Source of the DNA: an uncultured Bacteroidales bacterium
GTDB taxonomy: Bacteria; Bacteroidota; Bacteroidia; Bacteroidales; UBA932
Direction: 5' to 3'
Assembly (NCBI GenBank): GCA_944323505.1
Contig: CALUST010000024.1
Coordinates: 20,755 to 84,754 of the forward strand
Length of the DNA stretch: 64,000 nt
Shown: in pieces, positions 20,813 through 57,739 of the stretch
Layout: each line of letters begins with the position of its first letter
How positions within the stretch are numbered: position 1 is the stretch's first letter
The notes under the pieces: generated by a model
What the model saw: the letters and a program-made list of their open reading frames with translations, nothing else
What the model was told of the DNA's origin: nothing
Database searches by the model: none
Program-made: the position numbers and the translations under genes

Positions 20813-21490
20813 ATGAGGATTGATATCATTTCAGTAGTACCGGAACTTCTCGAAAGCCCTCTGGGACACTCCATAGTCGGTCGGGCCATAAAGAAAGGCA
20901 TAGTTGAAATCCATGTGCACAATCTCCGCGAGTTCGGCAAAGGCCCGCGCCTGCAGGTAGATGACTACAGCTACGGCGGCGATGCAGGCATGGTGCTGAT
21001 GGTCGAACCGGTGTACCGGATGATAGAAAGGCTCAAGTCCGAAAGAGACTATGACGAAGTGATATACATGTCCCCTGACGGGGAGATATTCAACCAGGGC
21101 GTAGCAAACGAACTGTCTCTGAAAGAGAATATCATCATCCTCTGCGGACATTACAAGGGCATCGACCACCGCATCAGGGAACATCTTGTGACAAGAGAGA
21201 TCTCCGTCGGGGACTATGTGCTCAGCGGCGGGGAGATTCCGGCCGCGATGGTGGCAGATGCGATTGTAAGGCTCCTGCCAGGGGCAATAACAGACGAGAC
21301 CTCGGCATTGAGCGACTGTTTCCAGGACGGGATGCTGTCGGCTCCGGTCTATACACGTCCTGCTGAATTCAACGGATGGAAAGTCCCGGACGTGCTGTTG
21401 AGCGGCAATCCGAAGCTGATACGCGAGTGGCAGGACGAACAGGCGATTGACAGGACAAGACGGCTCAGGCCCGGACTTCTCGAGGACTGA
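20813..21490 (+). CDS. trmD: tRNA (guanine-N1)-methyltransferase
   Basis: [39 protein letters not shown]. Confidence 0.97.
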
Positions 21491-21575: not shown

Positions 21576-21606
21576 TTTGCAGTTAATAAAAATTTGTCTA
21601 CATTTG
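21576..21606 (+). promoter_or_regulatory. Consensus sigma-A promoter with no long downstream ORF
   Basis: -33 TTTG (21576-79), 19-nt spacer, -7 TACATTTG (21599-606). A second TAATTTTG lies at 21572-79. Confidence 0.7.
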
Positions 21607-21611
21607 AAGAT

Positions 21612-21875
21612 TGTAATGGCTACCATAATGATGGTACCATTCAAAATCCCGGCATCGTGCCGGGGATAGCGGTCAAAATACTAACCACTAACCAAACAAT
21701 AACACGAATTCCCAAAGGGAAATACTGCTAACTAACCAGAATGAAGCCTGCAGTGATTGCAGGCTTCATTAAAACTCCAGGGAATTTTTCCCTCACACAT
21801 TTACATCAATGTCTGAGAAGACACTATGTATAAAGGATGCCGGCTCAAAAGTGAACTTTCGGGCCGGCATCCTTG
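21612..21875 (+). ncRNA. Candidate structured small RNA (orphan)
   Basis: Consensus promoter, seven successive hairpins, three ACTAACCA motifs in the linkers, and a terminal 14-bp stem. No family recognised. Confidence 0.5.
21833..21874. terminator. GC-rich hairpin between the sRNA candidate and the convergent TonB receptor
   Basis: aaggatgccggctc / gggccggcatcctt (14 bp, one G-U). U-tails are weak on both strands. Confidence 0.55.
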
Positions 21876-21912
21876 TCTTCAGTCATTCCAATGCTGCCGC
21901 CATGAGGGCAAG

Positions 21913-24321
21913 TCAGAACGAATATGAGAGTTTCAGCATGAAATTTATCAGTGCCTGTGGATAGATCCAGATATAGCTTGTCACATCATCGCTGCCTTCA
22001 TACATCTCGCGCGAGGCTCCTCCGTCTGCATAATACATATTATTGAACAGGTTGTTGATGTAGCCGCTGATACCGAGCACGCCTTTTCCGAGGCTGAACT
22101 GATGTGTCAGGCTGAGATTGGACACGAAATATCCCGGTACCGACCTGTCCTGACTCGAGGTATTGTCCAGATACTGTCTCCCGACATACTTTCCGTTGAT
22201 TGTGAGAGTGGTGGTCTTGAGGGAGTTATGTGCAATGTTCCGGAACGGGGTGAATGCGAGTTGCATCATCCCCACCACTGACGGGGACATTAGCATATCC
22301 GTGCTGCCGCAATTCTGGACTGCATTCTTCCCGGTGAAATTGTAGTCGGCATCATAGACAGGGATATAGGCGACATAGTCCTTGAGCCTGTTCATGCTGA
22401 GTGAGAGATTTGCATCAGCACGCAGCCAAGGCAGGGCCTCCCACGCGGCTGCAAGTTCTATTCCCCGGCGATAACCCCTTCCCACATTCTCCTTGATCGC
22501 ATAGCCGGAATCACTCAGCCGGCCTGTCTCCAGGAGCATATCGAAATATTCCATGAAATAAAGGTTTGCGGATGCCGTGATCTTCGGTGCTGAATATATG
22601 TAGCCGATCTCCACGTCAACCATCTTCTCAGGTCTGAGTTCCTCTCTCGTGCCTCCGAGATTGTTGGTGATGATGACTTCCTTGATGTCGCTCCTGCCAG
22701 GCTCCCTGTTGCCGAGGGCTGCGGAAATGTACGCCTTGTTGCGCGGGGTCCAGTTAAAGGTGAGGCCGGCGCGCGGGTTGAAGAAATTCCATGTCGTGCT
22801 GTAGTCCAGCGGGCTGCCGTCATCATCAGGGCCTTCCATGTCAAGCGAGACTCCCCTGTACTGGAGGTCGAGATATGCTGTAATCCAGTCTGCAGGAGCA
22901 TATTCTGCACGGGCAAATACATTGAGTTCCTGCTTGAGACCGTTGTTCAGATACCAGGTGTGTGCCGCATTGAAGCCGTCATAGTCGAAATCAGACGGCA
23001 GACGGCTGCCCCAGAGCAGTTTCCCGATGTGATCCCCGTCATAGCGGGACACGTTGACCCCTCCTGTAAGACTGACTTTGTCCGATGTATACCGCACTTC
23101 GGAATTGGCGACGAGATAATAGTTGTCCATTGCCTCCCGTTCGATGAAATCACCTCCTGTGGTCATCGGCACTTCACCGTCTTCCTGCACCGGCTGCCCG
23201 GTGACCTTGTCATACATTTCAGGGATTGCAGGGAAGGCTTCCATCCCGAGCATTCCTTGCAGATTGTAGTCGGAGAGTTCATTCCCGGCCTCGTATTCCT
23301 CATAGTAGCCGTCACCCTTGGTAAAGTTCAGTGTCGTACTCCATACGACATTCTTCGGGAACTGGTGAGTGTAGTTCAGTTGCAGATGATGCTGGGTATA
23401 ATTGTCCGTCTGGTTGTCATAGTACTGTACATTGCCGAAACGGTCATAATACTCCCCGGCACTGTTATATCTGCGGTCAGTATTGTATGTATCCATGTCA
23501 ATCCCGTTCCATGTGATGCCGGTGTGCTGGTCTCCCATCAGGTATGTGAGTTTGAGGGAATTGGTCTCGTTCATCCAGCCGAGGACCGCGAGAGCGGACT
23601 GCACCCTGGCCTTGGCATTGCGGATATAGCCGTCGGTCCAGTTGCGGGAATAGGCGAAATCGAAGTACACTCCAGACCTTGTAAGCCCGGTGCCGGCCGC
23701 CACTGTAGACATGAAAGTATTATACGATCCTGCGGCAACTTCTGCTCTCACATAAGGAGACGAGCCGACAGATGCCGTACTCATATTGACGCTGGCGCCG
23801 AATGCCCCTGCCCCGTTGGCTGAGGTGCCGAGGCCTCTCTGCAACTGGACAGAACTCAGCAGGCTGGTAAGAGACGGGATGTTCACCCAGAAGACCTCCT
23901 GCGACTCCGCGTCATTCAGTGTGATACCGTTGAGAGTGACATTGATCTGTGAGCCCTTGCTGCCCCTGATCGTCATCTTGGAATAACCGAGACCGGTACC
24001 TCCTTCATTCACTGCCACTACAGACGGCTGCAGATTGAGCATCATCGGGAGGGAATTGACAGGGTTGTTCCGTCTCAGATCTTCCCTGCCGACCATGGTG
24101 TAGGTGACAGGAGTGTTCTTCCCTGCTCTTGAGGCAGACACGACGATGCTGTCGAGCCTGTCTGTCTTCTCTTCGACATATAGATTGTCTGATTCGCCGG
24201 TCTCAGACATGAGGGTCTCATGACCGGATGTACCAGCCTTGACGGCTGCTTCGTTCTCCGCAGCTGCTGCAGAAAACGGGACGAGCACAGAAAGTGCTGC
24301 AAAAAACAAAAAACCTCGCAT
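21913..24321 (-). CDS. TonB-dependent outer-membrane receptor, probable thiamine transporter (BT2390/OMthi-like)
   Basis: Signal peptide; LDSIVVSASRA TonB box; plug motifs TIRGSKGSQINVTLNGITLND and QLQRGLGTSANGAGAFGASVNM; C-terminal F; TPP riboswitch upstream. Start set at ATG 24321. Confidence 0.85.
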   Translation of the reverse strand: MRGFLFFAALSVLVPFSAAAAENEAAVKAGTSGHETLMSETGESDNLYVEEKTDRLDSIVVSASRAGKNTPVTYTMVGREDLRRNNPVNSLPMMLNLQPSVVAVNEGGTGLGYSKMTIRGSKGSQINVTLNGITLNDAESQEVFWVNIPSLTSLLSSVQLQRGLGTSANGAGAFGASVNMSTASVGSSPYVRAEVAAGSYNTFMSTVAAGTGLTRSGVYFDFAYSRNWTDGYIRNAKARVQSALAVLGWMNETNSLKLTYLMGDQHTGITWNGIDMDTYNTDRRYNSAGEYYDRFGNVQYYDNQTDNYTQHHLQLNYTHQFPKNVVWSTTLNFTKGDGYYEEYEAGNELSDYNLQGMLGMEAFPAIPEMYDKVTGQPVQEDGEVPMTTGGDFIEREAMDNYYLVANSEVRYTSDKVSLTGGVNVSRYDGDHIGKLLWGSRLPSDFDYDGFNAAHTWYLNNGLKQELNVFARAEYAPADWITAYLDLQYRGVSLDMEGPDDDGSPLDYSTTWNFFNPRAGLTFNWTPRNKAYISAALGNREPGRSDIKEVIITNNLGGTREELRPEKMVDVEIGYIYSAPKITASANLYFMEYFDMLLETGRLSDSGYAIKENVGRGYRRGIELAAAWEALPWLRADANLSLSMNRLKDYVAYIPVYDADYNFTGKNAVQNCGSTDMLMSPSVVGMMQLAFTPFRNIAHNSLKTTTLTINGKYVGRQYLDNTSSQDRSVPGYFVSNLSLTHQFSLGKGVLGISGYINNLFNNMYYADGGASREMYEGSDDVTSYIWIYPQALINFMLKLSYSF

Positions 24322-24341
24322 AAAATGACAATTATGCAAGG
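24301..24341 (-). terminator. Riboswitch expression-platform terminator overlapping the receptor start codon
   Basis: CCUUGCAUAA-(UUGUCAUU)-UUAUGCGAGG followed by UUUUUUGUUUUUU. Confidence 0.7.
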
Positions 24342-24367
24342 GGCGCGCATGGCTGCGCATGAGATCT

Positions 24368-25334: not shown

Positions 25335-25438
25335 ATCATTTATTGTCATATCTGTAACGACAGCAAATATAACAAATCCAGGCACACAATCAAACAAGAA
25401 ATAGCATCATATTGCTCTATTACTCATGCAGAATTTAT

Positions 25439-28392: not shown

Positions 28393-28440
28393 CAAAAGTA
28401 GTCAAAAAAACTAGGAAATCAAAACTGTTTAGTACCTTTG
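28393..28440. promoter_or_regulatory. Divergent -7 elements: TACTTTTG (minus, pyrG) and TACCTTTG (plus, steroid reductase operon)
   Basis: TAnnTTTG matches at 28400-28393 and 28433-28440. Confidence 0.6.
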
Positions 28441-30601: not shown

Positions 30602-30918
30602 AAAAGGAGGGACGATCTGCCGCGCCGGCCATGGCCGGTGAGGAAAGTCCGGACAGGAAAGGGCACTTCACTGCGGAAAGCGCAGACGGGGGTAACTTCG
30701 TGGAACCTGTAACAGAAAACAACCGCATCTCCGGATGCAAGGGTGAAAACGTGAGGCAAGAGCTCACGACGGGCTGTGGCGACACACTCCGGGTACGGGA
30801 CTGAAGCCTGCAAGACCAAATATACTGACAGCCAAGGGCGGCCCGTCCGATGTCAGGGGGTAGGTTGCGAAGATAAATGGCAGAACAAAACAGAAACCGG
30901 CTTACGGTTCCTCCTTTT
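30602..30918 (+). ncRNA. rnpB: RNase P RNA, bacterial type A, lacking P18
   Basis: GAGGAAAGUCC (CR-I) and ACAGAAACCGGCUUAC (CR-V); P1 aaaaggagggac/gttcctcctttt; P2, P3 and P15-P17 pair as expected. Confidence 0.95.
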
Positions 30919-30962
30919 TATAAATGAGGCGCGCTGAAAAGGTGGTATTTAAAGCACACTTT

Positions 30963-42822: not shown

Positions 42823-43024
42823 AAAGCGTCATATTCTCTTCGCGCACGCGACTCCCGATGCGACAAGTTAAAAGTGTCCAAAGATAGCAAAATTTTCCAT
42901 GAGTAAGCAAAGCGGGCGTACAAGTATTGATTTATTTATATTATTGTATAAAAATTTATGAATTGAAAGATTTTTTATTCGCGATTTTTATTAATTTTGA
43001 CACGGTTTTGTAAAATCTACAACA

Positions 43025-45729: not shown

Positions 45730-45760
45730 TTTGAAATTCCGATTAAAAATTATAACTTTG
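45730..45760 (+). promoter_or_regulatory. Sigma-A promoter for zapB-like-zapA-6S(-rny)
   Basis: TTTG (45730-33), 19-nt spacer, TAACTTTG (45753-60). Confidence 0.7.
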
Positions 45761-54065: not shown

Positions 54066-54189
54066 GACTGGTTTTGGGTGTCAAAGTTACCCAAAATCTG
54101 CCGAAAATCCATCCTGATATGCCAGGATTTGTTTTGCGATTAGAGATTCAGATGTTATTTTTGTCTCCTCCACACAATAATATGCCGAC

Positions 54190-56404: not shown

Positions 56405-57616
56405 CTATCTGATTTTTAAATAATCAATCAAACGCGGAGCCTCATCAAGAGCATCAGAGAACACCGCAGGGGCAAAGTCCCGGAGATTGTACCTGCTCGC
56501 CATCACCTGCCCGTAGGCCCCGGCACTCCTTATCGCGACCAGATCCCCCCTTTCACTCACCGGAAGCAGCCTTCCCTGCCCCCACACATCGCTCGACTCG
56601 CACACCGGGCCGACCACATCATAGGACTGCAGCCCCTCCTCGTCATCCCTGCCAATGGCAGAAAGATTCTCAATCTTGTGATAGGCCCCGTACAACGCAG
56701 GACGGATAAGGTCATTCATCCCCGCATCAAGTATGAGGAAAGTCTTGGTCTCCCCGCTCTTCACAAACAGCACCCTCGAAATGAGAGAGCCGCACTGCGC
56801 CACGACCGACCTGCCCGGCTCGATATGCAGACGTTGTCCCGGCCTGCGGGGGAAGCCCTTGTCAAGAGCCTGCATCCAATCCTCAAAAGACGGTACAGGA
56901 TTGACATCCGGGGCCTCATAATCCACCCCGAGCCCGCCTCCGAAGTCCACATTGTCCACCTTCAGCCCCTTGTCCTCAAACCATGTCACAATCTCCCTCA
57001 CCCTGGCAGCCTCAAGCCCGAAGACATCTGACACCTCTACAATCTGCGACCCTATATGGAAATGCAGTCCGGTAAAATCTATGTTGTGGCACCGTCCGAG
57101 CAGGTCCACAAGAGCATCGAACTCATGCGAAGCAATACCGAACTTGTTCTCGAACAGCCCTGTAGTGACATATTTATGTGTATGTGCATCGATATTCGGG
57201 TTTATCCGTACAGCCACCCTGGCACGGAGTCCACAGGCTCCTGCCATCTCATTGATGACGCAGATCTCATGCAGGGACTCGCAATTGAAAGCCTCAATTC
57301 CCGCTGTCAGAGCCGCATAGATCTCCTTGTCGCTCTTCCCCACACCTGCAAACACGGTCTTCTCCGCCGGGAAACCGCATCTGAGAGCCATCAGCACCTC
57401 ATTACCGCTCACACAATCCGCCCCGAGCCCTCTCCCGGCCACAGTCTCCAGGATACGCCTCTCGACATTGGCCTTGACGGCATAATGGACATCGATATCA
57501 TATTTCGAAGCAAGTGAGACGAGAGTATCCAGAGTACGGCCAAGCAGCTCCATATCATAATAATAGAAAGGAGTGGCCATCTGTCCGAATTTCTCTATGG
57601 GTGTCTGGTCAAACAT
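56405..57616 (-). CDS. lysA: Diaminopimelate decarboxylase
   Basis: HYAVKAN, ENKFGI, HFHIGSQI, EPGRSVV, VGPVCESSD, AGAYG. Confidence 0.93.
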   Translation of the reverse strand: MFDQTPIEKFGQMATPFYYYDMELLGRTLDTLVSLASKYDIDVHYAVKANVERRILETVAGRGLGADCVSGNEVLMALRCGFPAEKTVFAGVGKSDKEIYAALTAGIEAFNCESLHEICVINEMAGACGLRARVAVRINPNIDAHTHKYVTTGLFENKFGIASHEFDALVDLLGRCHNIDFTGLHFHIGSQIVEVSDVFGLEAARVREIVTWFEDKGLKVDNVDFGGGLGVDYEAPDVNPVPSFEDWMQALDKGFPRRPGQRLHIEPGRSVVAQCGSLISRVLFVKSGETKTFLILDAGMNDLIRPALYGAYHKIENLSAIGRDDEEGLQSYDVVGPVCESSDVWGQGRLLPVSERGDLVAIRSAGAYGQVMASRYNLRDFAPAVFSDALDEAPRLIDYLKIR

Positions 57617-57739
57617 AAATTTAAATGAAAAACGGTTGCAAAAATAGGGAAAAAATCGTTAATTCGCGCTTTGAATCTCTGACTTTGTCAAAGTTCATGT
57701 AACAAATTGAAGAAATCACTAAATCTGAGGATTGGAACA

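Follow-up and report, generated by a model that had tools for sequence, protein, structure and literature searches.

Small RNAs (sRNAs) can themselves be captured by other RNAs, and base-pairing sponges, also called anti-sRNAs, are known as RosA in Bacillus subtilis and as SroC, AgvB and 3′ETS-leuZ in enterobacteria; RosA and AgvB are encoded by stand-alone genes with their own promoter and terminator, and 3′ETS-leuZ of E. coli is a tRNA-derived spacer. RNAs that titrate proteins form another class, whose known members carry about 5–22 copies of the bound motif. In gut Bacteroidota, post-transcriptional control of polysaccharide utilization loci (PULs) has only recently been traced to the multi-copy FopS sRNAs and one antagonist protein: in Bacteroides thetaiotaomicron, FopS sRNAs have a terminator 3′ of a conserved single-stranded stretch of ~41 nucleotides (nt) at the 5′ end, their pairing with translation-initiation regions represses SusC-like transporters, and RbpB is the protein that antagonizes them (PMC11697453). 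No RNA sponge in Bacteroidota was found in the literature searched, including that study and a 2026 review of gut-commensal sRNAs. Here, we describe a candidate for such an RNA in a 64,000-nt stretch of DNA (contig CALUST010000024.1, positions 20,755 to 84,754; hereafter, the window) from a 1.93-Mb metagenome-assembled genome (MAG) of Candidatus Cryptobacteroides, an uncultured genus of Bacteroidales. Positions 21576–21776 on the plus strand of the window are a stand-alone gene for a predicted non-coding RNA of ~165 nt, which is named sRNA1 here; its putative partner, encoded elsewhere in the genome, is named sRNA2. The reading that we favor, to which we assign a probability of roughly 0.55, is that sRNA1 is a base-pairing decoy (a sponge, target mimic or anti-sRNA) for sRNA2 and would in this way modulate the repression of SusC and PUL genes.

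The gene lies in the 422-nt spacer between trmD and a convergent TonB-dependent receptor gene, a gap that had been given as ~420 nt in an initial annotation of the same DNA. Its promoter appears to be of the housekeeping type, and transcription would start at about 21612. The gene is composed of the following elements:

21576–21606, plus strand: Bacteroidetes-type promoter TTTG-N19-TACATTTG, with TTTG at 21576–21579 and TACATTTG at 21599–21606
21615–21664, plus strand: variable 5′ domain of two hairpins (21615–21641 and 21648–21664), from minimum free energy (MFE) folds
21678–21705, plus strand: linker 1, consisting of AUACUAACCAC-UAACCA (motif 1) and then AAUAACAC, unpaired in the MFE fold
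21709–21721, plus strand: SL2, a hairpin (UUCCC-AAA-GGGAA) between the two linkers
21727–21739, plus strand: linker 2, GCUAACUAACCAG (motif 2), the predicted pairing site for the 5′ end of sRNA2
21740–21776, plus strand: terminator hairpin with a 13-bp stem and the weak tail UUAAAAC, forming the 3′ end of the conserved sRNA1

The pattern TTTG-N18–21-TAnnTTTG matches seven times in the window, where 0.22 matches are expected and none of 100 shuffles reached seven. Each of the other six matches is located 14–56 nt 5′ of a long open reading frame (ORF; 90–543 aa), so the strict pattern is a good predictor of promoters in this genome. No ORF of at least 80 aa was found within 400 nt of the match at 21576–21606, which is hence an orphan promoter, with the 19-nt spacer and the lack of a long ORF that the initial annotation had described.

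A DNA search with the 422-nt spacer in 40 relatives returned promoter-like fragments only. The sRNA1 family was missed by BLAST because it diverges too fast, and it was revealed by a synteny route via TrmD, in which 80 trmD loci (TrmD homologues of 79–90% identity, all from Cryptobacteroides or Bacteroidales MAGs) were compared. Most of these loci share a unit comprising the promoter, 0–2 variable 5′ hairpins, a linker, SL2, a second linker and a hairpin with a GUGA-type loop; the linkers read CUAACCA(C/A)UAAUAAUUAA, then, after SL2, ACACUACUAACUAACC (the ACUACUAACUAACC linker), and are followed by the GC-rich hairpin and usually by a T-run. MAFFT alignments misaligned SL2, and RNAalifold, run on the first of them, recovered nothing but the terminator; a covariance model was hence built from one clade, and all members were then realigned to it. 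At E < 2e-5, this model of the core recognized sRNA1 at 70 of the 80 loci, and its match in the window spans 21680–21777 (42 bits). In the model alignment, 96.3% of the pair cells hold standard pairs, as compared with 73.8% in shuffles and ~50% when the partners are slid by one column, and 14 of the 15 modelled pairs show changes on both sides. The 11 modelled pairs of the terminator are 99.3% paired, with 10 changed on both sides; SL2, which 46 of 50 orthologues possess, with no fewer than seven versions of its stem, and which one clade (L019, L020, L027 and L028) lacks, has all four of its pairs changed on both sides and 87% of its cells paired. Among the 70 orthologues, the CTAACCA columns are 94% conserved and the CTAACTAACC columns, the best-conserved part of the family, 97%; the −7 box of the promoter is kept in 66 and the full motif in 48 (within 140 nt upstream). 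With its promoter kept and its SL2 and terminator covarying in relatives, and with structure and motif retained at 70 of 80 trmD loci, the independent, promoter-driven structured sRNA claimed in the initial annotation is well supported.

The unit lies directly downstream of trmD in most species, a position that would also suit a cis-acting element, either a 3′ untranslated region (UTR) of trmD or, for the gene downstream, a leader or riboswitch. We give this explanation hardly any credence: sRNA1 has its own promoter, its terminator comes before the next gene, which varies from species to species and is convergent in this genome, and no riboswitch family matched. Moreover, five loci have the unit in the opposite orientation to trmD; four of them carry the full promoter on the strand of sRNA1 and one (L064) the −7 box only; because its own promoter follows the inverted gene, sRNA1 is an independent gene and not the 3′ UTR of trmD. 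A small protein at this locus was considered and rejected: the conserved linkers contain stop codons in several frames, and sRNA1 is therefore non-coding. A repeat or mobile element was rejected as well, sRNA1 being single-copy in its own genome with self-palindrome matches only.

A search of the window region against Rfam 15 gave a best E value of 0.22, to eukaryotic microRNA models, and no family reached its gathering threshold for sRNA1; eight orthologous loci likewise gave no Rfam match on sRNA1, and ARAGORN called no tRNA or transfer-messenger RNA (tmRNA). The permissive matches, namely the microRNA models, the terminator of the Thr leader and OrzO-P on the wrong strand, were set aside as chance. 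The statement of the initial annotation that the RNA is not tmRNA, signal recognition particle (SRP) RNA or RNase P RNA agrees with these searches, as does its novelty; the sole RNA gene in the window that reaches a gathering score is an RNase P RNA at 30604–30920. sRNA1 was detected in six of eight other sampled Cryptobacteroides genomes, and outside the genus the covariance-model matches are weak and mostly terminators. On these searches, sRNA1 is a new RNA family that is absent from Rfam and largely confined to Cryptobacteroides. The only possible relative outside the genus is a sequence in a sister genus (L319; G094:C15), ...CUUCUAAUUAACCAAAUGCUGAGGCCCGCAGUGAUGCGGGCCUUUUU, which resembles the 3′ half of sRNA1, including the GCAGUGAUGC top of the terminator, and which may be a divergent homologue.

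The MFE fold of 21608–21885 reproduces all seven hairpins of the chain reported in the initial annotation (21615–21641, 21648–21664, 21709–21721, 21740–21770, 21779–21793, 21810–21823 within 21803–21829, and 21834–21874), with z = −8.8 and none of 200 shuffles folding as well. The minus strand of this region is equally foldable (z = −9.7), so that folding alone cannot assign the strand; the conserved part, 21612–21776, gives z = −6.3 when folded by itself. The extent of ~260 nt that had been proposed for the RNA is to be shortened, since the conserved unit ends at the 13-bp stem at 21740–21770 and the last three hairpins are not conserved. Among orthologues, the number of hairpins in the 5′ domain ranges from zero to two and their sequences are unrelated; 8–86 nt separate the −7 box from the beginning of the covariance-model match, and the closest relative (L013) has two 5′ hairpins of similar shape; these hairpins would serve to protect the 5′ end. 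The terminator loop, GUGAU, is the GNRA-type GUGA of the family with an extra U.

Three copies of ACUAACCA / ACTAACCA are present where they had been reported, at 21680–21687, 21687–21694 and 21731–21738, motif 1 being duplicated in this species. CTAACCA/TGGTTAG occurs at 31 sites on both strands of the 1.93-Mb genome, against ~236 expected for a random 7-mer, and is thus ~7-fold under-represented; because the 7-mer is so rare, its three copies within 59 nt are not due to chance.

A genome search for the complement of the motif, TGGTTAG, led to sRNA2, of which two copies were found:

G000:C25:63770–63847, minus strand, outside the window: sRNA2 copy 1, ~78 nt, with its own TTTG-N19-TACCTTTG promoter and terminator
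C2:21400–21449 continuing in C30:102705–102781, outside the window: sRNA2 copy 2, the 3′ trailer of a tRNA-Cys

In sRNA2, a C-free 42-nt core, GGUUAUUAGUUUUAGUGUUAUUAAUUAUGUGGUUAGUAUGAG, precedes a terminator hairpin and a T-run. All 30 copies, from 30 loci, agree completely over the initial 36 nt of the core, and the terminator stem varies. Each genome harbors 1–6 copies, either as a tRNA-Cys trailer or as stand-alone genes. A third context was observed in other species, in which a promoter and a conserved 5′ hairpin ending in ACUUAUU stand just before GGUUAUUAG; because this hairpin ends directly before the core, processing at the 5′ end of sRNA2 is suggested. At E ≤ 1, sRNA2 was detected in 47 of 50 sRNA1-bearing genomes (~41 of them strongly, at < 1e-10), and it is present in all eight other sampled Cryptobacteroides genomes; outside the genus, 142 genomes from 36 other genera of the family yielded one weak match, and exact-word matches in public genomes are almost all from Cryptobacteroides or Bacteroidales MAGs. 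The best Rfam match of sRNA2 is FopS (RF04319), with 13.9 bits against a gathering score of 56 and E = 8.2, so that it is not a detectable member of that family.

Two sequences in other families were noted that recall sRNA2 or its complement. One (L279; G513:C1:438964–439031) is a look-alike with 75% identity to sRNA2, lies immediately behind a stop codon and ahead of a terminator, and may be a distant relative derived from a 3′ UTR. The other (L280; G379:C52, around locus position 1500, minus strand), from another family of Bacteroidales, is an mRNA leader, CAUAAUUAAUAACCUAAAACUAAUAAAUCAUG, that almost equals the sRNA2 core in reverse complement, although no sRNA2 was detected in that genome; a generic leader sequence of Bacteroidales may be what the core mimics in antisense.

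Written as its reverse complement, sRNA2 looks like an sRNA1 core that lacks SL2, and the two RNAs are therefore complementary in trans in an antiparallel register, the order of the sites on sRNA1 and on sRNA2 being antiparallel as pairing requires. Cofolding of the pair from this genome predicts 31 intermolecular base pairs in helices of 11, 8, 5 and 7 bp with a net energy of −27.5 kcal/mol, and all hairpins are kept. In this prediction, linker 1 lies opposite positions 31–41 (GUGGUUAGUAU, 11 bp) and 17–24 (GUGUUAUU, 8 bp) of the 78-nt partner, such that motif 1 faces GUGGUUAGUAU and the AAUAACAC or AUAAUUAAU stretch faces the middle of the sRNA2 core; linker 2, with motif 2, lies opposite the 5′ end of sRNA2 (CUGGUUA, UUAGU) in the 5- and 7-bp helices, with one bulged C. 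The stretches of sRNA1 predicted to enter the duplex include CUAACCA and CUAACUAACC. Across the 70 orthologues, the mean net interaction energy is −22.0 kcal/mol versus −10.2 kcal/mol for composition-matched shuffles of the core, and 59 of the 70 outperform all 20 of their shuffles. The columns predicted to pair are the best-conserved columns of sRNA1 (94–97%), and the sequence around them varies freely. Six genomes that form one clade have GGUUAGAGUGAG in place of GGUUAGUAUGAG in sRNA2, and it is in exactly these genomes that sRNA1 has CACUCUAAC in place of AUACUAAC; this two-position change, GAGUG in sRNA2 with CACUC in sRNA1, is compensatory and represents a single event. Elsewhere, the invariant sRNA2 cannot covary.

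The initial annotation had interpreted the repeated single-stranded motif as a sponge for an RNA-binding protein of the RRM, cold-shock or PUR type. The idea that this motif is the functional core is supported, and the term “sponge” is probably apt, but the protein ligand is not upheld: given the 31 predicted base pairs to the invariant core of sRNA2 and the compensatory change, the titrated partner is likely an RNA and not a protein. We know of no protein with a preference for CUAACCA. Titration of an RNA-binding protein by the single-stranded A/C-rich motifs, for example of an RbpB-like RRM-1 protein in the manner of CsrB or CrcZ, would account for the 2–3 conserved motif copies in unpaired linkers between hairpins, and there is a precedent in RbpB of B. 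thetaiotaomicron, which binds single-stranded parts of sRNAs and antagonizes FopS (PMC11697453); a protein could bind here too, alone or alongside RNA pairing. As the explanation of the locus it is nevertheless quite unlikely, since conservation extends past the 7-mer and tracks the sRNA2 core antiparallel over the 31 predicted pairs, a compensatory change between the RNAs exists in one clade, the motif copies are few for this class, and Bacteroides are reported to have neither CsrA nor Hfq (PMC13370968).

The same complementarity would also serve if the roles were exchanged, that is, if sRNA1 were a trans-acting regulator of UGGUUAG-like targets that is buffered by sRNA2, or if the two RNAs formed a switch of mutual destruction. 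sRNA1 does have its motif in the canonical seed position directly 5′ of the terminator, and one copy of sRNA2 is a tRNA 3′ trailer, comparable to the E. coli sponge 3′ETS-leuZ. This polarity is unlikely, however, because the sense UGGUUAG sites outside sRNA2 are mostly in tRNA D-loops or within ORFs and not in mRNA leaders; no long complement of motif 2 exists elsewhere in the genome, and the invariant core, the multi-copy layout and the enrichment at SusC leaders are all properties of sRNA2 and not of sRNA1. The D-loops that contain TGGTTAG number seven (tRNA-Cys, -His, -Asp and -Asn, two tRNA-Met, and a tRNA-like sequence at C7:172035 that is not called by ARAGORN), and they were judged unlikely as targets, being structured.

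The resemblance of the sRNA1 core without SL2 to the reverse complement of sRNA2 makes an origin by inverted duplication plausible, and the locus might then have no function of its own and be a decaying inverted copy of sRNA2, or else a pile of terminators of convergent genes behind a promoter-like sequence; the equal foldability of the minus strand and the scoring of two hairpins as minus-strand terminators would agree with this. Such an absence of function is very improbable in view of the retention of the gene in 70 of 80 loci where TrmD itself is only 79–90% identical, the preservation of the promoter even when the gene is inverted, the covariation of SL2 and the terminator, and the 94–97% conservation of the linkers while the flanks vary; in addition, the covariance model gives no match on the opposite strand of the sRNA2 loci. 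An inverted duplication of sRNA2 plausibly explains the origin of sRNA1, but not its maintenance.

SusC genes were collected by a TIGR04056 search, which replaced an earlier classification by regular expressions that had given six genes only and was uninformative, and the leaders (−50 to +9) of the 14 SusC genes with placeable starts were compared with the sRNA2 core. The longest exact complement to the core has a mean length of 8.3 nt in these leaders versus 6.1 ± 0.33 nt in shuffles (0 of 500 reaching it), and the mean duplex energy is −18.5 versus −14.0 ± 1.2 kcal/mol (0 of 200). Different SusC leaders match different parts of the core, with CUAACCA, AUAAUUAAUAA and CUAAUAAC-type complements. 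Four CUAACCA sites are located 10–19 nt 5′ of start codons, upstream of two SusC genes, a serA-like gene and korA, and for one SusC gene a UAACCAAA-type site 12–25 nt before the AUG persists across orthologues. Genes in general show no upstream excess of the TAACCA hexamer (22 occurrences versus a mean of 20.6 in permutations). sRNA2 thus seems to be an mRNA regulator that silences genes for sugar transporters (SusC), and the linkers of sRNA1 and the SusC leaders of the same genome complement the same core, which corresponds to the mimicry of target sites by a sponge.

The leader of korA, which encodes the alpha subunit of a 2-oxoacid:ferredoxin oxidoreductase, was noted separately: at G000:C42:9131–9143 it carries CUAACCACA directly before the AUG. 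In relatives (L254–L278), there are other core complements of 8–11 nt; the longest complement is raised in korA leaders across the genus (7.8 versus 6.3 ± 0.43 nt), and the signal is weak overall.

In the mechanism that we propose for sRNA1 as a decoy of sRNA2, the 5′ hairpins and the terminator would hold the two A/C-rich linkers single-stranded on either side of the small spacer hairpin. Together, the linkers would present an interrupted antisense image of the 42-nt core of sRNA2, a composite of the target sites of that RNA. By pairing with sRNA2, sRNA1 would sequester it or send it to degradation, for which the long duplex might recruit a double-strand-specific RNase, and would thereby set a threshold for the repression of SusC and PUL mRNAs by sRNA2. 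That the whole forms a fixed two-RNA circuit of Cryptobacteroides, in which a multi-copy FopS-like sRNA represses SusC/PUL leaders and a single trmD-adjacent decoy buffers or resets this regulator, is put forward tentatively, at slightly less than even odds. The analysis shows the architecture and conservation of the gene, covariation within sRNA1, the complementarity and shared distribution of the two RNAs, one compensatory event between them and the enrichment of target sites for sRNA2; transcription of sRNA1, pairing in vivo and the polarity of regulation are inferred.

Several observations weigh against sRNA1 being a decoy for sRNA2. The compensatory change between the RNAs is one evolutionary event only, and in the same clade a C-to-G change in motif 1 breaks one pair. 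The co-occurrence of sRNA1 and sRNA2 is confounded by descent because both are specific to the genus, and their complementarity could be the historical trace of an inverted duplication of the sRNA2 gene. One sponge gene would face 2–6 sRNA2 genes, and the direction of regulation is not readable from sequence. As for the targets, 9- and 10-mers complementary to the core are only modestly enriched near all start codons (p ~0.04), and the duplex energy test was not significant for the korA leaders across the genus. Finally, the terminator is followed by a run of ~6 T in most orthologues and by TT or TTT and then A in this species and a few others; because it lacks a proper U-run here, the exact 3′ end of sRNA1 is uncertain in this genome, and read-through into the hairpins at 21779–21874 is possible.

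The surroundings of the gene in the window are as follows:

20813–21490, plus strand: trmD (tRNA m1G37 methyltransferase), a 225-aa ORF that anchors the sRNA gene by synteny and lies outside it
21779–21874, no strand assigned: three further hairpins (21779–21793, 21803–21829 and 21834–21874) that are not part of the conserved sRNA1
21913–24360, minus strand: convergent TonB-dependent receptor gene, an 815-aa ORF, a neighbor only
25364–25394, minus strand: match to the promoter pattern
28393–28423, minus strand: match to the promoter pattern
42879–42911, minus strand: match to the promoter pattern
45730–45760, plus strand: match to the promoter pattern
54133–54163, plus strand: match to the promoter pattern
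57610–57642, minus strand: match to the promoter pattern

Similarity to the closest relative, L013 (80% identity), stops at 21784, and the hairpins at 21779–21874 have no second copy in the genome. On the minus strand, 21874–21834 is the first hairpin after the stop codon of the receptor gene and is followed by UUUAUAC; the three hairpins are probably part of the 3′ end or terminator region of that convergent gene, or else read-through alone would extend into them. The minus strands of the hairpins at 21648–21664 and 21709–21721 also have terminator-like scores (a stem with a T-rich tail), and these hairpins could stop read-through from the receptor gene.

If the decoy reading of sRNA1 is true, it would be the first RNA sponge described in Bacteroidota and an RNA counterpart of RbpB, the protein that antagonizes FopS. 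An RNA decoy would add a third layer to PUL control, and sponging, which is known in Proteobacteria and Firmicutes, would extend to this phylum. The system would comprise two short, defined RNAs with a predicted map of their interaction, testable in vitro without culturing. The two new RNA families are also of use for annotating Cryptobacteroides, which are uncultured and very abundant in animal guts and rumens.

sRNA sponges are an already known kind of RNA, of which sRNA1 would be a new member in a new RNA family. It shares with CsrB/RsmZ and CrcZ the repeated single-stranded motifs between hairpins, but it has only 2–3 copies of CUAACCA, no GGA loop motifs and no A-rich run of CA motifs. 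Its partner, sRNA2, resembles FopS/GibS (RF04319) in being multi-copy, in having a single-stranded 5′ seed followed by a terminator, in its canonical promoters and in its complementarity to SusC initiation regions; it differs in falling below the RF04319 threshold, and the reported antagonist of FopS is the protein RbpB and not an RNA. The closest likeness is to RosA, SroC, AgvB and 3′ETS-leuZ, in which an exposed stretch imitates an mRNA target site and pairs with the seed of a partner sRNA, as is predicted for sRNA1. Unlike these sponges, sRNA1 would not rely on one seed match but would cover nearly the whole 42-nt core of its partner, in four segments split by a hairpin, and it faces a multi-copy partner and belongs to Bacteroidota.

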